This document shows positions 1 through 12,200 of a DNA stretch of 13,094 nt, piece after piece. Origin of the DNA: a virus (lineage: Duplodnaviria > Heunggongvirae > Uroviricota > Caudoviricetes); the IMG/VR virus record IMGVR_UViG_2602041549_000009; one strand, 5' to 3'. The translations under genes and the position numbers were made by a program. The notes below the pieces were generated by a model. The model had not been told where the DNA came from. It worked only from the letters and a program-made list of their open reading frames with translations, and ran no database searches. Positions within the stretch are counted from its first letter, which is position 1; each line of letters begins with the position of its first letter.

Positions 1-239
1 CCATCATACACTAAATCAGTAAGTTGGCAGCATCACCAGTACGAGCATACGAAATGCTCCCACAGAAGTTCCGGTAACAAATCTGGACGCCCCCAGCGTG
101 GTAGCAACCACACTCATTCAAACCCTTGACTGGCGTCAGCGGAAAGCGCGCTTAATCACAGAGGCAGAAGATGGGATATTTAATGATGTGCTTGAAAGAG
201 TCATTACCCTGATTGGTGGAGAGCATCTGCTTAAGTAAA

Positions 240-262
240 AGGAGGGCTGAGAAGCCCTCAAC
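240..262 (-). terminator. Candidate intrinsic terminator after the 423-aa gene
   Basis: Stem GAGGGCT / AGCCCTC (242-248, 253-259) with a 4-nt loop, about 23 nt past the stop at 282; on the minus strand it is followed by CTTTTACTT. The T-tract is short and interrupted. Confidence 0.4.
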
Positions 263-4075: not shown

Positions 4076-5086
4076 TTACTCTGCTGGCTCTTTTTCTTCG
4101 GTGATCACTATGTTGGCTACCGGGTTAAATCTCATGGCATCTGCCAGGTAATCCGGTGCAAAATGCGCGTAAGTCATCGTCTGCTGAATAGTGCTGTGTC
4201 CTAGTATTTTCTGCAATGTGATGATGTTTCCACCATTAATCATAAAGTGAGTGGCAAAGGTATGCCGTAAAACATGCACAGACTGACCGACGGGTAAATC
4301 AGGCCGCACAGTCCTTATTGCACTTCTGACAGTTGCATAATTAGGTTTCATTAATCTTCCGGTCGCCTTTACTTTGACCAGTGATTCAAGATCTTTAGCG
4401 ATTGGAACGACCCGCCTTGAGCCGTTCTTTGTCTTCATAAAAATAACCTTTCCGCCAATTATGTGCTCACCTTTAATATTGGCAATCTCACCCCAGCGCC
4501 CACCTGTAGCCAGACACAACAATACAGCCTTAAGATTATCGCCAGATAAAAGCGCGGTTAGCCTGGAAATATCATCATGTGCAAGATAAGCCATTTCTGG
4601 CTGATTAATGTTTAACTTACGTATCTCGCGAAACGGGTTATTACCCGCAAACTCTTCAGCATCAATCAGCTTTTCAAAGAAACCGCTCATCATGGCACAA
4701 TAGCGATTTACTGTTGACTGTTTAATTCCACGATTCATTAATTTAAGTCGATATCTGATAATATTTTTCCGGGTTAAATGATCGCTTCTGTTTATCCCAA
4801 GTTCGCGCATATCACAAAGAACAGCTTCAATTCTTACCCGCGTCATCGCTCCATAACGATGATTCTTGCCATGATACGCCCACCATAATTCCAGAAGATC
4901 GCTTAACGCTTTACGTTCAATGGGCTTTTCGACCCACTCTTTGTTGTGGTAGTGCATCAGAACATGGCGTTCATACGCCACTGCTTCACCACGAGTATCA
5001 AATCGCCGCCTGAATCTTTTTCCTTCTGCTCCTGCAGGCCGCACGTCCACAGCAAACTTACCGTTAACCAACTTCTTTATCGTCAT
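4076..5086 (-). CDS. Tyrosine-type site-specific recombinase / integrase, about 336 aa
   Basis: C-terminal catalytic region HVLRHTFATH ... LGHSTIQQTMTYAHF (HxxR and catalytic Tyr) is typical of the phage-integrase family. The start at 5086 (MTIKKLVNGKF...) overlaps the primase stop as ATGA. Confidence 0.85.
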   Translation of the reverse strand: MTIKKLVNGKFAVDVRPAGAEGKRFRRRFDTRGEAVAYERHVLMHYHNKEWVEKPIERKALSDLLELWWAYHGKNHRYGAMTRVRIEAVLCDMRELGINRSDHLTRKNIIRYRLKLMNRGIKQSTVNRYCAMMSGFFEKLIDAEEFAGNNPFREIRKLNINQPEMAYLAHDDISRLTALLSGDNLKAVLLCLATGGRWGEIANIKGEHIIGGKVIFMKTKNGSRRVVPIAKDLESLVKVKATGRLMKPNYATVRSAIRTVRPDLPVGQSVHVLRHTFATHFMINGGNIITLQKILGHSTIQQTMTYAHFAPDYLADAMRFNPVANIVITEEKEPAE

Positions 5087-7758
5087 TTTTCGGTGACCTC
5101 CTTGTAACTGAATATCCGGCATTTCAGCACTTCCGGCTCTCTGGCTTCGGCTACTCCTTTTCCGGCGTTTGCCTGTCTGGACACCTCACTACGAATGGTT
5201 TTACGGCCTGTCAACGGTCGGGAACGCCCAGCTCCGAGCAACTCAATCATTTCGCGATCGGTTCGGATCTCCACGCGGTGAATGGCGGCAGCCTGTGCCA
5301 GTTGCGGAATACTGATAGCAATCCCTTCGCGGCATCCCTTGCCGTAATGGTTTACACCGTATTTTGTTATGCCGTCCAGGAAGTCGAACGCCTCCCAGAA
5401 CTCCATCACTTCTGGCAAGTCAGCCGCCGCCGCTTTAACCTGCGCCGTTGCCATTTGTTCCAGTTCCAGACATGTGGCATCAAGCCATTCATCCGGGATA
5501 TCGATAACGCATTTCAGCGCCCTGACCAGCGCGATAAGTTGCGCGTGATTTTTGGCAATACGGGGATGGCGAATATTTTCGCATCCGCAAAGGCGTTCCG
5601 TTTCAGCGGGCGATACCTCCAGGAACGTTTGCATAATCGCCCGTTCCTGACTTACCGCCCGGTGAATAAACCCCGATACCTTCTCGACGGGGTAGAGTTC
5701 CAGCCGTCTCGCCGCCAGTCGGGTATCAGGTGAATGGCGTTTTTTATCGGTGTATATGCGTATCAGGCGCTCAATAATTGCCGGCGAGGCATTTACCCGC
5801 GCATTCTGCGCAATCACGATAGCGCCCTTAAAATCCGGGTCATAGGTGTTGTTATTGTTGGCCTTAACCCCACGAACACCGATACCGCCACCGTTATAGA
5901 GGCTTTTCAGGTTATCGAAGTCAAACGCACCTCTTTTTTGCGCATTGTCTCCCCGGTCTGCTTCAATCAGAACAACAGGCAATCCGGCGACCTGTCCAAA
6001 GGTGCGCTTCCAGCCCGCCTCTGATCCTTTGGTTGGATCAACTCCTTCGTAGTTGTCACGACCGCACAGCCGCCAGCAAAAATCAATCAATGTTGATTTG
6101 CCCGTTCCGGGCTCTCCGGTGACTTCAAGGAAAGGGAAGGATTCTTCTTTATCCCGGATTTGTTCGCTGAACAGGGAGCCCAACCAGAAAGCCAGGGTAA
6201 TAATTCCCTTTTCACCAAAAGCCAGCCAGAGATCTTCCACCCAGGACGCTGTAAATTCATCCGGTTTTTTGTAGTTAATCTGTAATGTGGGGTTTTCGCT
6301 TAATGGTTTTGCGTTTATGCCATCAATTTCAAAATAATCCTCGTCATTGATTTCATAAGTTTTTCCCTTGTAAACAGCAATATCATTAAACAGCCATGCC
6401 CCAATCGCCTTGTTGTATCCGATAAAATCCTGACCAATAACCTCTTTTATTGCGGGAAGGTCATTTTTTATTAATGCGTCAAGCTGCGTAGTCGTTCCGG
6501 TATAAATACCGCCTTTTGCCACGTGTAACAGGCGTTTTTTAAATTCAGATGAGGATGTTAATTGTCCTGATGTAAAGGTGTTTTTCACCGTAGCACCATC
6601 CGGGAACGTAACACGGAAGTAATACCATGCTTCATCCGTGTCATTATTTCGAATGTAATAAAGCGGCGCTGGGTTACAGTTTGCGATTTCTTTTACTGCA
6701 CCAGATTCCTTAAGTGCAATTTTGCGCGCTTCATCCTCATCAACATTTCGCTCATTAATGACACGCTCAACAGCCTTCATATGGCGCTCAATGTCCAGCT
6801 TGAACCAGAAAACACGGTTATCAAAAGTAAAATGAAATTCCTTCCGCTCACGAAAGGAAAACATTATTAGTGCCTTATCTCTTGGAGATTTCGCCAGCAA
6901 TAAATCACCGTAATAACGGTATCTTTTCACATCATGGCCACGCAGCTTTCCGGCGATGTGTAAATCATTCCAGTCGCGTTTATTGTTGTTTTTACCTGGC
7001 AACGCCGCTGCCGTTCTCCAGCCGTCTTCGGCGCTGCGTTCTGCATGTTTTTTCGCGTAACGCTCACCTGCACGCCCGTTATCCAGCGCCCACACGATAA
7101 CCGGACGGGGATTATCCCCGCACAGCTTCGCCAGCTCTTCCAGTGCCTTATCAGGGTAGTTCACGGCAGACATGACAGAAACGGCCGCAATGCCATTCTG
7201 GTTAAGGCTGATGGCATCAAAGATACCCTCACAAATCCAGATTTCTTTGGCCTTGCTTAAATCTGCTCCCGGATAAGCCCACCACAACCCCTTGTAGCTG
7301 CCGGAAAAATTCGCCTTCCGTTCGAAGCGTTCCGGTCGGTCTATGATGCGCTCCCACCACACGTCGTCAGCCAGCGTAAAACGCACAGTAGCGGCCTGTT
7401 CGCCGCTTTCCTTGTCTTTGTATCGCTCCTGGGTAAATACCCCCTTCAGTGGCTCTGTAGCAATATTGCGTGCCTCCAGGAGATAAGCTGCCGCCGCTGC
7501 GTATGGTTCATCTTTCGTACTGATATAGCGATCTGACCATGATGAAAACACATCCGGGTAAAGTTCTTTAGTCAGCAGGTCTGTACCGCATTTATTTTCA
7601 CGCCCGCAGTGTACGATGTACGGCCTTTCAAGGCTGGTAAACAACTCTTTCTTTCCACATTGCGGACAAACACCATACCGGAGGTAGTTATTTTCTTCTT
7701 TGAAGTTGTAATCACGGATAAGACGGTTAATAATCTCTTTTCTGATGTCAGATTTCAT
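5083..7758 (-). CDS. P4 alpha-like primase-helicase (zinc-binding N-terminus, TOPRIM-like motif, C-terminal P-loop NTPase), about 891 aa
   Basis: N-terminal CPQCGKK...HCGRENKCG zinc-ribbon-like motif; WICEGIFDAISL (EGxxD TOPRIM signature); Walker A GEPGTGKST and Walker-B-like VVLIEADRGD. Start placed at 7758 (MKSDIRK...) because SD GGAG sits 8 nt upstream; the ORF track's 7782 start lies inside the upstream hairpin. Confidence 0.85.
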   Translation of the reverse strand: MKSDIRKEIINRLIRDYNFKEENNYLRYGVCPQCGKKELFTSLERPYIVHCGRENKCGTDLLTKELYPDVFSSWSDRYISTKDEPYAAAAAYLLEARNIATEPLKGVFTQERYKDKESGEQAATVRFTLADDVWWERIIDRPERFERKANFSGSYKGLWWAYPGADLSKAKEIWICEGIFDAISLNQNGIAAVSVMSAVNYPDKALEELAKLCGDNPRPVIVWALDNGRAGERYAKKHAERSAEDGWRTAAALPGKNNNKRDWNDLHIAGKLRGHDVKRYRYYGDLLLAKSPRDKALIMFSFRERKEFHFTFDNRVFWFKLDIERHMKAVERVINERNVDEDEARKIALKESGAVKEIANCNPAPLYYIRNNDTDEAWYYFRVTFPDGATVKNTFTSGQLTSSSEFKKRLLHVAKGGIYTGTTTQLDALIKNDLPAIKEVIGQDFIGYNKAIGAWLFNDIAVYKGKTYEINDEDYFEIDGINAKPLSENPTLQINYKKPDEFTASWVEDLWLAFGEKGIITLAFWLGSLFSEQIRDKEESFPFLEVTGEPGTGKSTLIDFCWRLCGRDNYEGVDPTKGSEAGWKRTFGQVAGLPVVLIEADRGDNAQKRGAFDFDNLKSLYNGGGIGVRGVKANNNNTYDPDFKGAIVIAQNARVNASPAIIERLIRIYTDKKRHSPDTRLAARRLELYPVEKVSGFIHRAVSQERAIMQTFLEVSPAETERLCGCENIRHPRIAKNHAQLIALVRALKCVIDIPDEWLDATCLELEQMATAQVKAAAADLPEVMEFWEAFDFLDGITKYGVNHYGKGCREGIAISIPQLAQAAAIHRVEIRTDREMIELLGAGRSRPLTGRKTIRSEVSRQANAGKGVAEAREPEVLKCRIFSYKEVTEK

Positions 7759-7771
7759 ATATAAAACTCCA

Positions 7772-7800
7772 CCCCACTGCACCTTTTGCAGTGGGGTTTT
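7772..7800. other. GC-rich hairpin between the 101-aa gene and the primase start (bidirectional terminator or attenuator candidate)
   Basis: CCCCACTGCA (7772-7781) pairs with TGCAGTGGGG (7787-7796) around a 5-nt loop. On the plus strand it is followed by TTTT (7797-7800); on the minus strand it is followed by GGAG-TTTT and then the primase ATG. Confidence 0.45.
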
Positions 7801-7801
7801 A

Positions 7802-8107
7802 TTAATTACTCGTTACTTCTTGTTTCTTGGTAATCCCTGCGGCTTCAGCTTTGTGCCATGAAAAAATACCGCCAGAAAGATGCATACCAGATTTTATTGT
7901 TTCTAATTCCCGATAAATAATATTAAACAGAGATACAATTGCTTTGTTTGTGATTTCTGAAGATGCTCCGCAATCCCTCTCACCAAACATGATGGATATA
8001 AGATCGATGAGGTTAATTACATCTGCGAGATCTTCTTTTGCACTCTCTGTAAAAAATCCAATGTATTCTTTATCTAAAATATCCGCGTAATTCTGATTTT
8101 CAGACAT
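7802..8107 (-). CDS. Hypothetical 101-aa protein, AT-rich compositional outlier
   Basis: ORF with SD GGGGGAG 5 nt before the ATG at 8107. The gene is visibly more AT-rich than its neighbours. No recognisable motif. Confidence 0.6.
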   Translation of the reverse strand: MSENQNYADILDKEYIGFFTESAKEDLADVINLIDLISIMFGERDCGASSEITNKAIVSLFNIIYRELETIKSGMHLSGGIFSWHKAEAAGITKKQEVTSN

Positions 8108-8175
8108 AAAAACTCCCCCGACCCGTTAAGGTCGAAATATAAATTTAATTCAGTTATCAGTGGATAATTCGGGAA

Positions 8176-8394
8176 TCAGGCGGAAAGCTGCGTCACCTTC
8201 AACGCTCTGAAATGTGTCATTCCCAGCTCTTCCAGCCCTTCGGCTGCGCGGCGTATGGCTTCGCCCGGTCCCGTTCCGTATACCGTTGCATGTGCATGTT
8301 TGGTTAACCCGCGCTTATTAACGGCATAACCCAACACAAAGAAACGTTTTTCACCACTGCCATTATTTTTACGGGATGCTGAACGGGTTTTCAT
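8176..8394 (-). CDS. Hypothetical small protein, 72 aa (early-region small protein)
   Basis: Its ATG overlaps the upstream stop as ATGA at 8391-8394. Glycine-rich basic protein MKTRSASRKNNGSGEKRFFVLGYAVNKRG...; may belong to the small Icd-like/Ash-like families seen in P4-like prophages, but I cannot confirm. Confidence 0.55.
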   Translation of the reverse strand: MKTRSASRKNNGSGEKRFFVLGYAVNKRGLTKHAHATVYGTGPGEAIRRAAEGLEELGMTHFRALKVTQLSA

Positions 8395-8579
8395 TTCTTC
8401 ACCTTTACCACTGATGCTGTGAGCTCTTCTTCTGGCAATTGATATTTCGGCGCAATTTCTTCCGTATACCTGATAGCGTCCCTTGCCGCTTTTCCTTTTG
8501 ATTTATATTTACGTATCGTGTGGAAGTTTTCTTCCTCTCCTGTTACCACATTACGCAATTTAATATGAATCTCGTACAT
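8391..8579 (-). CDS. Hypothetical small protein, 62 aa
   Basis: Strong SD GGAGG 7 nt before the internal ATG at 8579 (MYEIHIKLRN...). The ORF track's 8609 start lacks an RBS and overlaps the upstream gene. Confidence 0.55.
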   Translation of the reverse strand: MYEIHIKLRNVVTGEEENFHTIRKYKSKGKAARDAIRYTEEIAPKYQLPEEELTASVVKVKK

Positions 8580-8581
8580 CG

Positions 8582-8764
8582 TTACCCCTCCATGATTTTT
8601 ACTGCGCATTTGTGGGTTAATCGCCCCTGTTTGTCATTGCGGGAATATGCCATACGACAGGCATCACGCCATGCATCGTCATAAGTCGGGTATTCCCGGG
8701 CATGAATCATCTGGCGAACGTCGCCGTTCTGGCAGTTAATCAGGGTGATAAGGAGCTTAAACAT
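8582..8764 (-). CDS. Hypothetical small protein, 60 aa
   Basis: SD GGGAGG 6 nt before the ATG at 8764 (MFKLLITLINCQNGD...). Overlaps the upstream gene's end by 8 nt; its stop at 8582-8584 abuts the next start at 8579. Confidence 0.5.
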   Translation of the reverse strand: MFKLLITLINCQNGDVRQMIHAREYPTYDDAWRDACRMAYSRNDKQGRLTHKCAVKIMEG

Positions 8765-8930
8765 GGCACGCCTCCCGGACACGGATACGGGCGACAAAGA
8801 CCAGGCGGGATGCAGGAAGCAGGGCGCGCGCTTCGCGCTCACTGGCAGCGGTAACGGTATGAAGGCGGATATTTTTACCGTGGCACTGCATAAAGCGCCA
8901 GATAAAATCAGGGCGTGTTGATATAGCCAT
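8757..8930 (-). CDS. Hypothetical small protein, 57 aa
   Basis: SD GGGAG 8 nt before the ATG at 8930 (MAISTRPDFIWRFMQCHGKNIRLH...). The longer 175-aa version in the ORF track has a low-complexity hydrophobic N-terminal extension with no RBS. Confidence 0.5.
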   Translation of the reverse strand: MAISTRPDFIWRFMQCHGKNIRLHTVTAASEREARALLPASRLVFVARIRVREACHV

Positions 8931-8949
8931 ATGAAAGGCTCCCAATTCA

Positions 8950-8980
8950 AGTTTAAGAAGCCTCACTACAACGCTGTCAA
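8950..8980 (-). promoter_or_regulatory. Candidate sigma70 promoter for the small-gene operon
   Basis: On the minus strand: perfect -35 TTGACA (plus 8975-8980), 18-19 bp spacer, -10-like TTAAAC/TAAACT (plus 8950-8956), about 20 nt upstream of the SD for the 8930 start. Confidence 0.35.
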
Positions 8981-9252
8981 ACGTGGTGGCGAGACGTAAC
9001 AGGGTTGACAGACTGGCAAATTGGGAAACCAGCGAGCATAAAGCTCCCCCATTACGCCCCGCCATAATACGGGAAAGGGTGGTATTACGGGCACAAAAAA
9101 ACCGCATTACGGAATACAAGCGGCTACCCGCCAATTTATTCAGGCTGTCAAACCCGGCACCTGTTTTATGAGGTGCGGGCAAACGATACGCCATGACAAA
9201 AAAGCGAGTCAAGCAATATTGCAAATTATTTTGGCGCGATTGCGCTGAGTGA

Positions 9253-9281
9253 TTGATTTTTAAGAGTAAAAAAGCCATAAT
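9253..9281 (+). promoter_or_regulatory. Candidate sigma70 promoter on the plus strand
   Basis: -35 TTGATT (9253-9258), exactly 17-bp spacer, -10 CATAAT (9276-9281). Confidence 0.45.
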
Positions 9282-9287
9282 CATTTC

Positions 9288-9378
9288 TGCCTATTATTTC
9301 TTATTGTTGGTTTCAGGTGCACTAAATGCACATCCTTGACTGGTTGGCTCGCTAGCTTTAGCGAGCTTCTTTTTTTTG
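9288..9378 (+). ncRNA. Candidate ~90-nt small RNA (promoter-to-terminator unit), antisense to the minus-strand early transcript
   Basis: Bounded by the plus promoter at 9253-9281 and the plus terminator at 9347-9378. Contains an internal hairpin GTGCA-ctaaa-TGCAC (9317-9331). No ATG-initiated ORF with an RBS in the interval. Confidence 0.35.
9347..9378 (+). terminator. Strong rho-independent terminator, plus strand
   Basis: Perfect 8-bp stem GCTCGCTA / TAGCGAGC (9347-9354, 9359-9366) with loop GCTT, followed by TTCTTTTTTTT (9367-9377). The minus-strand reading has no T-tract after the stem, so it is plus-specific. Confidence 0.7.
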
Positions 9379-9560
9379 CTCTGCTGCCAGTACCCAGCCT
9401 CCTTCCCTCACATGTAGTAATGTGCCCGCTCCAGTCAGCTGGATAATGCTGTATTCCCGGACATCCGGTTATGATGTTTAAAGCGTTTGTTTGTTTATGC
9501 CACGTGGAGAATATCCCCATGTCGCCATTAATTGTATTTATCATAACAGTTTACCCAATC

Positions 9561-9577
9561 CGGTTAATGTAACCGGA
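9561..9577. promoter_or_regulatory. Perfect 17-bp palindrome CCGGTTA-atg-TAACCGG containing the iteron core
   Basis: Inverted repeat with a 3-bp centre; each half carries the GGTTA/TAACC core of the iterons at 3509-3827. Lies between alpA and the small-gene operon. Confidence 0.45.
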
Positions 9578-9839
9578 ATAACTCAATTTCATACACTGTA
9601 AATAAATGCTGATTTTGAACTTAGCTCCTTGGAATATATTTCTTACGTGTGACGTACAGGTGAAAATATCCCTCTGATAGTCCATTTTCTTTTATTGGGT
9701 CACATCTGTTTACTCCGGTTCCCTTAACAAGGGTAGAGCATCTTTTAAACCATGAATGCATCTTTGGTTAAGTGATGTTTCTTATTGAATGAAATGTTTA
9801 GGCGCATATCGCGCCATGCTGACTATAAAGTGAAAATAA

Positions 9840-10061
9840 TTAAGCCTGAAAACGTTGTTGTTTTCTTTCTTCTATCCAGTCGATAATTTCCTCTTCAACC
9901 CATGCAACCGCACGAGGGCCTATTTTTATTGGTTTGGGGAATATATCAGATTTTATATCTTCGTAAATTCGAGCTCTCGATCTCCCTGTGATTTCAATGA
10001 CTCTGGGGAGTCTTATTAATTTTTGAATCCGCCTTTCGCTGGTCTGTGAGTATGCTGACAT
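9840..10061 (-). CDS. alpA: AlpA-family phage regulatory protein (helix-turn-helix; excisionase/transcription regulator), 73 aa
   Basis: Protein ...IRLPRVIEITGRSRARIYEDIKSDIFPKPIKIGPRAVAWVEEEIIDWI matches the AlpA/HTH_17 pattern (hydrophobic-TG-S/R-R-x-x-IY ... FP-K-P-x-K-x-G-x-R-A-x-x-W). SD AGGAGG 5 nt before the ATG. Confidence 0.85.
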   Translation of the reverse strand: MSAYSQTSERRIQKLIRLPRVIEITGRSRARIYEDIKSDIFPKPIKIGPRAVAWVEEEIIDWIEERKQQRFQA

Positions 10062-10432: not shown

Positions 10433-10589
10433 AAATGATATCGATAAAATAGTTTGATTTTTTTGTTTTTATTAAAAGCACTGGTTAATTGTGAAAAATT
10501 AATTATAAATCAAATGGATATATCTGTTTTTTTAGGGTAAAAATCACTAGGTGCTTTTAGTGAGGTCTTATTCTATTGATTTTAAAAGA

Positions 10590-10624
10590 TAAAAAAATCG
10601 GCGTGTCCACATATTGTCCACGCC
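10590..10624 (-). terminator. Candidate intrinsic terminator after the integrase gene
   Basis: Stem GGCGTG / CACGCC (10600-10605, 10619-10624) with a 13-nt loop; on the minus strand it is followed by a T7 tract (rc of 10590-10599), about 48 nt past the integrase stop. Confidence 0.5.
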
Positions 10625-10671: not shown

Positions 10672-11934
10672 TCAGTCTGTTTCGTTAGCCCATTTAAAAT
10701 CATAGGGGGCAATATATGCCGTCTTGCAGGTGTCGAGATAATCAGCCCACCATTGCAACATTCGGCGGCGTTCCTGCATATGTTCAGCTCTGTGAATGTA
10801 TGCAGCCCGGACACTGCCTCTTTCCCTGTGACTCATCTGAAGCTCAACGGCTTCTCTTGTCCACCTGCCTGACTCTGTCAGCGCCGAACAGGCCATAGCT
10901 CTGAATCCGTGGCCACAAATATCTTTTTTTGTGTCGTATCCCATGTGGCGTAATGCCTTGTTAATGGTGTTTTCGCTCATTGGTTTTATCTGGTAATGGT
11001 CGCCGGGGAAAATAAACAATTCATCACCGGATATATTTCTTATATCGTCAAGAAGCTGCATGGCCTGAGTGGGCAAAGGGATGGCGTGAGGGGTTCCCAT
11101 TTTCGTTCCACGATATGAATATTTTACGCCTTCTATTTTTTCGCGTTCTGCTGGTATTACCCACATTGATTTATCAAAGTCAATTTCATTCCAACGAGCA
11201 AAACGCAATTCACTTGAGCGAATAAAAATTAATAAATTTAATTTTAGTGCAAATTGCGTTAATAACCGTCCATTCATCTTGTGGTGGTAATCATTTATTT
11301 TGCCAAGTAATTCAGGTAATCGCTCAAGGGGAAGAGCGGGGCGATGTTTGGTTTTATTAGTTTCGATTGCACCGTTCAGTTCCTGCGCTGGATTGTATTT
11401 AATCATTCCATTCTGTACAGCGTAGCGCATAATGGCGTTCATTCGCTGCTTGTTACGTGATGCTGTCTCAAGCACTCCTTTATCTTCCATTTTGCGTAAA
11501 GGAATCAGTAGATCCATGGTTGTGATCTCGTTAATTGGCCTTTTACCAAGAATGGGGAAGATGTGGTTTTCCAGGTCTTTTAAGACTTTTTGCGCGTGTA
11601 ATTCGCTCCAGCCCTTTTTCCGGCTGTGCCATTCTCTGGCAACGTCTTCAAAAAGCACTATTTGAGGTTTTGGTGTGTGCAGTGGGTCAATGCCTTTAGC
11701 CAGGCTCGCCAGATATTCATCACGAGCGTTCCTTGCCTGTGCAAGTGTTACGGCAGGATAAATGCCTAAAGCTCGGGTCGTTTCTTTACCGTTGATAACC
11801 TTGCGAAAGCGCCAGTATTTTGAGCCGTTGGGGTGAACATAGAGATACAGGCCTTTCCCGTCACGAAGTTTTTTAATTTTGTTGTTGTCCTTATCTGGTT
11901 TGGCGTTACGTACAGCTACATCAGTCAGTTTCAT
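10672..11934 (-). CDS. int: P4-type tyrosine integrase (DUF4102-like N-terminal arm-binding domain plus catalytic domain), about 421 aa
   Basis: N-terminus MKLTDVAVRNAKP...GKGLYLYVHPNGSKYWRFR and C-terminus HGFRAMA...RAAYIHRAEHMQERRRMLQWWADYLD are characteristic of P4/CP4-57-type integrases. SD GGAGG 9 nt before the ATG at 11934; the track's 11976 start has no RBS. Confidence 0.85.
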   Translation of the reverse strand: MKLTDVAVRNAKPDKDNNKIKKLRDGKGLYLYVHPNGSKYWRFRKVINGKETTRALGIYPAVTLAQARNARDEYLASLAKGIDPLHTPKPQIVLFEDVAREWHSRKKGWSELHAQKVLKDLENHIFPILGKRPINEITTMDLLIPLRKMEDKGVLETASRNKQRMNAIMRYAVQNGMIKYNPAQELNGAIETNKTKHRPALPLERLPELLGKINDYHHKMNGRLLTQFALKLNLLIFIRSSELRFARWNEIDFDKSMWVIPAEREKIEGVKYSYRGTKMGTPHAIPLPTQAMQLLDDIRNISGDELFIFPGDHYQIKPMSENTINKALRHMGYDTKKDICGHGFRAMACSALTESGRWTREAVELQMSHRERGSVRAAYIHRAEHMQERRRMLQWWADYLDTCKTAYIAPYDFKWANETD

Positions 11935-12200
11935 TATGTTGATCCTCCAGACGGGTACAAATAAAAATCGAACCAAGCGTACCCGTTTTTATACCCATTT
12001 TAATATGGGCTTCAGGCAAATTTAACGAGAGATAACGAGACAATGGAAGAGATTTAACTCATTGAAAAACAATGGGTAATGGTTTTTTCTGAGAGATTGC
12101 GAGAAGTTGCGATGGTGTCCCCTGCAGACATCTACTTGAGGCAGCAGGGGATTGATTGGAATGGTATTTTTTAGATGTGAGAAATATTTTACCCGCTATT

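Follow-up and report, generated by a model that had tools for sequence, protein, structure and literature searches.

The window considered here is a stretch of 13,094 nucleotides (IMG/VR record IMGVR_UViG_2602041549_000009) and is a P4-like satellite prophage of Escherichia coli, with 99.7% identity to a region of strain HCP5S3_I2 beside tRNA-Arg/yfdC. All genes of the satellite lie on the minus strand, in the order integrase, alpA, regulatory region, small genes, and then primase and beyond. In the regulatory region, a short unit on the plus strand runs from a promoter to a terminator, and its promoter coincides with the start of a long minus-strand frame, which is termed eta-like here. This unit and its relation to the eta-like frame are the subject of the present analysis.

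The sigma-70-type promoter of the unit, TTGATT-17-CATAAT, lies at 9253–9281 on the plus strand (-35 box, 9253–9258; -10 box, 9276–9281) and matches the consensus at 9 of 12 positions. From the predicted start at G9289, 8 nt past the -10 box, to a 3′ end within a tract of eight U residues, the unit would yield a noncoding RNA of ~89 nt (9289–9377, plus strand). The predicted RNA has a single-stranded, U-rich 5′ part, a small hairpin, a strong terminator, and a U-tail, which is 6 to 9 residues long across the body types described below. The hairpin, GUGCA-CUAAA-UGCAC, is found at 9317–9331 on the plus strand. Its loop reads CUAA, or UUAA in variants, and agrees with the YUNR motif, which we take to be a mark of antisense recognition loops, and the C-to-U variant of the loop leaves both the hairpin and the motif intact.

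The intrinsic terminator (9346–9377, plus strand only) consists of GGCUCGCUA-GCUU-UAGCGAGCU at 9346–9367 followed by UC and U8, with the T8 run at 9370–9377. Its stem has nine pairs (eight Watson-Crick and one G.U, five of them G-C) closed by a 4-nt loop. When the hairpin is read on the minus strand, A8 precedes it and AACCAGUC follows it without a U tract, so that termination is possible only for plus-strand transcripts. Under a strict definition (a stem of at least 8 pairs, at least 5 G-C pairs, and a T-rich tail with a T6 run), the 13-kb window has no other terminator on either strand, and 0.003 are expected per window from 300 dinucleotide shuffles. The first-pass annotation, which was made from the sequence of this window, had described the same promoter followed by a plus-specific terminator, and both were confirmed at these positions; its "8-bp GC stem plus T8" was essentially right.

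No protein-coding frame of any credibility was found between promoter and terminator, in agreement with the first-pass annotation. The sole frame there is a 28-codon open reading frame (ORF) with a TTG start (9253–9339), which begins inside the -35 box. Among relatives, it has accumulated about 3 synonymous and about 11 nonsynonymous changes, and it is shortened to 16 codons in body type A′ and to 14 codons in type B. Thus, there is no conserved small hydrophobic ORF of the kind that would place the unit among type I toxin-antitoxin systems. The first-pass annotation had itself named one finding that would speak against a separate RNA, namely, that the terminator serves a longer plus-strand mRNA such as the ORF at 8983–9171. 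This ORF lies antisense to two RNA genes, C4 and isrK, and most relatives retain only 12 or 45 codons of it; a terminator function for it was rejected.

For comparison, the region 9213–9287 was sought in 5,426 complete E. coli genomes and was found in 66 of them (~1%). Behind the common promoter stand different RNA bodies. The body of the window, type A, occurs in 57 genomes; type B, which is unrelated in sequence and ~70 nt long, occurs in 9; and in type A′ (strain TOE17), the 5′ half has been replaced. Carriers of the unit include strains HCP5S3_I2 and ETEC1732, and strain STEC316 carries type B. G9289 is conserved in both type A and type B. No equivalent stable hairpin with a YUNR loop was seen in the type B body. 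All types finish with a G+C-rich hairpin and then a U-run, on the plus strand only. The stems of type B carry compensatory changes (CGGCCCG/CGGGCCG, CGGCCUGC/GCGGGCCG, and CGGCCCGC/GCGGGCCG), and in six relatives an A-to-G change in the type A stem gives a G.U pair on the plus strand and an A.C mismatch on the minus strand. In type A, an invariant single strand of 14 nt, AUCCUUGACUGGUUGG, adjoins the terminator, and the 5′ part varies.

The promoter is conserved as well. Eight relatives were collected by BLAST, without selection by pattern; in their alignment, the two hexamers and the spacing of 17 nt never change, whereas at least 10 positions of the spacer do. In the -35 region, even those bases that are wobble positions in the eta-like frame stay the same, and the neighboring codons change nonconservatively. 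The promoter is also present in nine of nine IMG/VR loci retrieved with an independent pattern for the PLE-like promoter and isrK. A survey with the promoter pattern added only one further species-level genome (Escherichia sp.), 9 IMG/VR loci, and 10 metagenome loci, all of them close relatives. Two unrelated plus-strand terminators that stand at the same short distance after one conserved promoter, in an element whose genes are all on the minus strand, are best explained by a plus-strand transcript. The unit is therefore most likely an independent gene for a noncoding RNA of ~89 nt, with its own promoter and terminator.

The RNA resembles no known family. Against Rfam 15, no family reached its gathering threshold; the best matches (E = 0.19 to 0.74) resembled the terminator only, led by suhB/mmgR (20.7 bits against a gathering score of 41) and Trp_leader (19.2 bits). 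Body types B and A′ gave no match in Rfam. In a sequence comparison with known phages, P4, and P2, no homologue of the candidate was found at E values up to 10. An exact-sequence search of the literature returned no paper containing the candidate sequences, and no report on P4-like elements was found to describe a plus-strand RNA here.

The frame that faces the unit is the eta-like frame of 175 codons (8757–9284, minus strand). It begins upstream of a PLE-like promoter, crosses isrK and C4, and finishes in an Icd/Kil domain; it is labeled "Icd-like" by PGAP, and the NCBIfam model NF033153 matches residues 127–169 only. The full PGAP/RefSeq label, "host cell division inhibitor Icd-like protein," spans two RNA genes and the PLE-like promoter and was met again in every P4-like locus examined. 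All 26 distinct relatives keep the frame open, with 4 to 15 stops in the other two frames, and an in-frame stop stands immediately upstream of its start codons. The box alleles of C4 described below never close the eta-like frame, yet they close the ORF on the opposite strand.

The frame has two in-frame AUG codons, at 9284–9282 and 9278–9276 on the minus strand, which together are complementary to the -10 box CATAAT plus the three bases that follow it. The second AUG is complementary to bases within the -10 box and the first to positions 1 to 3 nt after it, and this arrangement holds in 26 of 26 relatives with types A, A′, and B. The Shine-Dalgarno sequence AGG of the eta-like frame (9292–9290, minus strand) would lie inside the candidate RNA of type A. 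With a start at G9289, the RNA would complement the eta-like 5′ untranslated region from position -5 upward, and in type A it would cover AGG.

A transcript that runs into the eta-like frame from upstream would thus meet this RNA. In no class of element was a minus-strand terminator found to separate the eta-like start from the gene upstream of it, and in the window there is none in 9300–9840. The spacer that holds the unit, between the eta-like frame and the upstream gene, measures 555 nt in class 1 (with a 73-aa AlpA) and 195 nt in class 2 (with a 106-aa AlpA-family protein). In class 3, it measures 82 nt, and the upstream gene is a P2-capsid-like gene convergent with the unit. The first-pass annotation had the RNA antisense to minus-strand read-through from alpA. 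This stands, in the form that only upstream-initiated transcripts overlap the unit, whether from alpA or from another upstream gene, because the start of the PLE-like transcript, at ~9176, is already downstream of the unit. A minus-strand promoter-like site with an extended -10 element (TTAACC-16-TGtTATGAT) is located at 9567–9540 and is kept in four class 1 elements; a transcript from it would start at ~9533 and cross the antisense unit and the eta-like start. Judged by its sequence, this site is a candidate source of the target transcript besides alpA read-through.

The immunity RNAs proper of this element are found on the minus strand. A C4 antisense RNA, the homologue of P4 CI, lies at 8982–9069 (Rfam RF01695, 70.5 bits). 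It is preceded at 9095–9176 by an isrK/P4 seqA/c4-a1b1 element with upstream C4 target boxes (RF01394, 52.3 bits with a gathering score of 50; RF03163, 36.9 bits). IsrK is a structural homologue of P4 seqA (PMC4825925). The PLE-like immunity promoter, TTGACT-18-TATCGT (9212–9183, minus strand), has a predicted start at ~9176, which is the first base of the isrK model match. Nested at the end of the eta-like frame is a short Icd/Kil-like frame of 57 codons (8757–8930, minus strand), whose Shine-Dalgarno sequence lies inside the a2 box. Across 26 distinct relatives, the boxes a1/b1, those of C4 (a′/b′), and a2/b2 at the icd ribosome-binding site covary three ways.

The candidate RNA does not take part in this pairing. 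It has no match to the C4 covariance model (RF01695), which describes a closing stem, two hairpins, an a′ loop, and a b′ single strand and matches only the minus strand, and its sequence does not track the a and b box alleles across relatives. The suggestion of the first-pass annotation that the plus-strand RNA itself is a P4-type immunity RNA thus fails, as C4 and its isrK partner, with their covarying boxes, are on the other strand; for copy control, the second role it proposed, nothing pointing that way was found. What survives of its immunity or copy-control countertranscript is a putative accessory immunity countertranscript, directed at the eta-like initiation region (9284/9278).

The boxes themselves are diverse. 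At 8930–9190 (loci L001 to L032), there are at least seven alleles of the a box, which stands in a1, in the C4 loop, and in a2 at the icd Shine-Dalgarno sequence, and there are two alleles of the b box, UUGACAG and UUAGCAG. The C4 box alleles are reassorted among satellites that are otherwise ~90 to 95% identical. They look like a set of heteroimmune specificities, comparable to P1 versus P7.

The same layout is found in P4, where the PLE promoter is at 8728–8699, isrK/seqA at 8615–8692, and C4 (CI) at 8420–8507. A P4 frame of 214 codons at 8168–8812, in which the Icd model NF033153 matches residues 161–208 only, is eta: its start lies upstream of PLE, it runs across seqA and CI, and kil is nested within it in frame. 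According to a passage in PMC10111431 (citing Forti et al. 1999), P4 eta is translated only from the upstream late promoter and is translationally coupled to the alpA homologue, and its translation prevents CI-dependent termination, and as a result transcription from the late promoter continues into the genes downstream. In P4, as in three typical P4-like elements of E. coli, there is an overlap of 1 to 4 nt between eta and vis/alpA, and neither a spacer nor a plus-strand terminator is found at the eta/alpA junction. The P4-type PLE region is present in 1,311 of the 5,426 genomes. Thus, the window and P4 have in common a long frame with its start upstream of PLE that extends across seqA and CI in frame with Icd/Kil. 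In P4 and its typical relatives, this frame is translationally coupled to vis/alpA; in the family of the window, it is not coupled, initiates in a region of its own, and stands opposite an antisense unit, which P4 itself is without. The candidate and the CI/C4 RNAs of P4 and P1/P7, with their seqA to seqC targets, occupy the same regulatory region and share the theme of RNA control of a replication operon. However, the CI/C4 RNAs come from the other strand by processing of the PLE transcript and act through short covarying boxes, whereas the candidate would be a separate and dissimilar primary transcript.

P4 is the textbook case of RNA-based immunity: CI RNA brings about termination except when eta is being translated from the late promoter. 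Taken together, the observations are best explained by an antisense RNA that acts on the eta-like initiation region as a second RNA lock on satellite immunity, and we give this proposal as a whole about an even chance. We infer that the RNA is transcribed, that it starts at G9289, and that it has a regulatory effect. It would be transcribed divergently from the PLE-like promoter and stopped at its own intrinsic terminator. Its targets would be transcripts from alpA, from the putative promoter at 9567–9540, or, in other elements, from a late capsid-like gene. By pairing with the eta-like 5′ untranslated region of such upstream-initiated transcripts, the RNA would block ribosome loading, and cleavage of the duplex may be triggered as well. 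With eta-like translation blocked, read-through would stay sensitive to C4, and stray transcripts would remain subject to the C4-dependent shut-off of icd and the primase operon. After induction, strong upstream transcription would occlude the antisense promoter, and the switch would flip.

Similar arrangements are well known. RNA-OUT of IS10 is a short cis-antisense RNA whose promoter lies in the 5′ end of the target frame; it covers the AUG of RNA-IN and blocks translation initiation. The candidate resembles it in its size (~70 to 90 nt), in a promoter inside the 5′ end of the target, and in complementarity to the leader and ribosome-binding region. Two differences are that RNA-OUT covers the AUG, whereas the candidate stops 5 nt short of it, and that RNA-OUT limits transposase, whereas the purpose proposed for the candidate is to keep a downstream RNA-dependent termination effective. 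No sequence or Rfam relationship was found between the two. Sar RNA of the P22 immI region is a small antisense RNA with its own promoter that masks the ant ribosome-binding site within an operon. Like Sar, the candidate is convergent with the operon it would control, and its promoter would be expected to be occluded under strong transcription of the target; however, the target of Sar is ant, the target proposed here is a frame whose translation would act as an antiterminator, and there is no homology. OOP of lambda, an antisense RNA of ~77 nt that acts through RNase III cleavage, is likewise a promoter-to-terminator antisense RNA in an early regulatory region, but it overlaps the 3′ end of cII, whereas the candidate overlaps a 5′ untranslated region. 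In 26 of 26 relatives, the unit is encoded opposite the 5′ leader of the eta-like frame with its promoter inside the first codons, as expected of an RNA of the RNA-OUT or Sar kind. The kind of RNA would therefore be a familiar one, a cis-antisense RNA whose promoter sits within the opening codons of its target; what would be new is a target whose translation acts as an antiterminator in P4-type immunity.

If this proposal is right, a sublineage of P4-like elements has uncoupled eta from alpA and set an antisense RNA on the eta initiation region. The result would be a two-RNA circuit in which C4 silences the replication operon and the second RNA prevents leaky upstream transcription from bypassing C4. 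The convergent promoters would serve as a built-in switch and would add a further layer of RNA control to the decision of the satellite between lysogeny and induction. It would also account for an implausible annotation, a 175-aa "Icd-like" protein that runs across two RNA genes. The scope would be narrow, with the unit in ~1% of complete E. coli genomes.

Several points weigh against this proposal. The promoter match by itself is not significant, because matches of equal quality are no commoner in the window (22 sites) than in shuffles (22.3 ± 5.0). Conservation of the promoter is confounded, as the same bases also encode the start and N terminus of the eta-like frame and adjoin the PLE-like promoter. 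The predicted RNA leaves the AUG uncovered in either type, and in type B its predicted 5′ end abuts the GGGA Shine-Dalgarno sequence without covering it. In two relatives (L018 and L024), AGC stands in place of AGG. The 3′ half of type A is more conserved than the 5′ half, which faces the ribosome-binding site, a pattern that a pure model of ribosome-binding-site masking does not predict. Outside the Icd domain, no protein similarity was found between the eta-like frame and P4 Eta, and a role like that of eta can be suggested for the frame from its position alone. To these is added the narrow distribution of the unit.

Another possibility is that the product is a trans-acting small RNA of the Hfq type with mRNA targets in the host or helper phage, with bodies A, A′, and B differing in specificity and the effect in cis being secondary. 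We consider this possible but unlikely. Its appeal lies in the layout of the RNA, from the U-rich single-stranded 5′ part to the U-tail of 6 to 9 residues, in the invariance of AUCCUUGACUGGUUGG beside the terminator of type A while the 5′ part varies, and in the replacement of whole bodies behind a fixed promoter, which resembles an exchange of cargo. However, no target was found in the 13-kb element, where complementarity was limited to scattered 9- to 10-mers that are neither at ribosome-binding sites nor conserved. No target was found in phage P2 either, the best match being a G.U-rich run of 19 nt inside old compared with a shuffle maximum of 17. Nor do the bodies vary in step with other variable sites of the element. 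A combined form, in which the bodies are allelic trans-acting RNAs that reprogram the helper or host in addition to a cis lock on eta-like translation, is a doubtful proposition; if true, satellites would carry an exchangeable slot for RNA cargo at the immunity promoter.

Another explanation, which seems to us improbable, places the effect in transcription rather than in the RNA. A polymerase sitting at the plus promoter or leaving it would collide with, or be a roadblock to, those arriving from upstream, or the divergent firing would supercoil and tune the PLE-like promoter; the RNA would be a by-product, and the terminator would merely keep antisense transcription out of the upstream gene. 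Types A and B share only the promoter and the presence of a terminator, and a replaceable body is what such a mechanism would allow. The two -35 boxes stand back to back, 40 bp apart, and the terminator falls short of the stop codon in the convergent upstream gene by anything from 7 nt in type B to ~100 nt in class 2. However, an RNA of 89 nt with perfect complementarity would pair with read-through regardless, which makes this explanation hard to separate from antisense action on the eta-like frame. The conserved 3′ half of type A and the hairpin with the YUNR loop suggest that the RNA itself matters.

It is also conceivable, at long odds, that there is no plus-strand transcript at all. The promoter-like bases would then be kept for eta-like coding and for the flank of the PLE-like promoter, and the hairpins would be 3′-end stabilizers or protein-binding sites of upstream minus-strand genes. 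The -10 box is indeed the complement of AUUAUG, the -35 box falls in eta-like codons 10 to 12, and the promoter score is ordinary; moreover, a hairpin with a poor T-run occurs at the analogous place in another P4-like lineage. However, in each of two unrelated hairpins, the U-run is found on the plus side and is absent from the minus side. The invariance of the -35 box at eta-like wobble positions, next to codons that change nonconservatively, and the stem substitution that preserves pairing on the plus strand only also argue against this explanation.

That the unit encodes a small hydrophobic peptide of 28 aa (MIFKSKKAIIISAYYFLLLVSGALNAHP), such as a type I toxin under the control of a more upstream promoter, is largely refuted and very improbable: the frame at 9253–9339 does encode a charged N terminus and a hydrophobic stretch of 17 residues, and a plus-strand promoter-like site exists at 9193–9220, but the start is TTG with no real Shine-Dalgarno sequence, and the substitutions and shortenings given above show no purifying selection. 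A decoy or sponge for C4 was rejected and has next to no probability left, since the complementarity visible directly in the window, where UUGACUGGUUGGC (9336–9348) pairs at 12 of 13 positions with GCCAGUCUGUCAA of C4 and resembles the b box UUGACAG, is coincidental, because the candidate stays fixed while the b boxes switch between UUGACAG and UUAGCAG and all three C4 box sets covary, with types A and B each occurring with either allele.

In other elements, a few related sites were observed. In a different P4-like lineage, that of E. coli NCTC9100 (L046, 1322–1445), a capsid-like gene likewise lies upstream of the eta-like start. The hairpin there, GACCCGC-CUCUGA-GCGGGUC, is followed by only a poor T-run (UUUCUGUC), and the eta-like start codon is overlapped by TTGCCT-17-CATGCT, a weak plus-strand promoter. 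The site may be a degenerate form or an independent analogue of the unit; its alignment as a type-B-like homologue was ambiguous, and homology is not claimed. A further locus with a primase of 43% identity (L044) is without C4 or isrK and hence is not comparable. In E. coli chromosomal elements with a DUF927 primase or a RepA helicase (L010 to L013), C4/Icd-like modules 80 to 85% identical to the C4 region of the window were found, sometimes in tandem with pseudogenes annotated as "ash family." In two of these (L010 and L012), a plus-strand gene for a YlcI/YnfO small protein lies a few hundred bases upstream of the C4/Icd-like module, and the plus-strand RNA unit was not noted there.

The remaining genes of the satellite likewise lie on the minus strand. 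The integrase is encoded at 10672–11976 and the alpA/vis homologue at 9840–10061 (Pfam PF05930, E = 5.5e-17), 555 nt upstream of the eta-like start. The Toprim primase gene occupies 5083–7782, and further minus-strand genes encode a second integrase-like protein, an Ogr/Delta zinc-finger protein, and a P2-capsid-like protein. At the end of the int gene, within 10575–10624, a minus-strand terminator is formed by GGCGUGGACAAUAUGUGGACACGCC plus U7. The T-run region of this terminator (ATTGATTTTAAAAGATAAAAAAAT) agrees with the candidate promoter's spacer at 18 of 24 positions; a meaningful repeat at 10575–10596 was rejected, as it overlaps the T-run of the int terminator, is seen in class 1 only, and is probably a chance match of low complexity.

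Between a 101-codon gene (7802–8107) and the start of the primase gene, a perfect hairpin of 11 pairs (ACCCCACUGCA...UGCAGUGGGGU) was found at 7771–7797, with a terminator-like score on both strands. It may be an attenuator ahead of the primase, because its minus-strand tail, GGAGUUUUAU, includes the likely primase Shine-Dalgarno sequence. Immediately 3′ of the primase gene, the second tyrosine recombinase gene (4076–5122, minus strand), with Int_N and Phage_integrase domains, is additional to the integrase at 10672–11976. At the left end of the window, positions 1–251 (plus strand) are the 3′ portion of a MazF/PemK toxin gene. In a relative (L001, 510–1102), a MazE/AbrB antitoxin gene precedes the MazF/PemK gene, and the two form a toxin-antitoxin cargo pair at the far end of the satellite, adjoining the P2-capsid-like gene.

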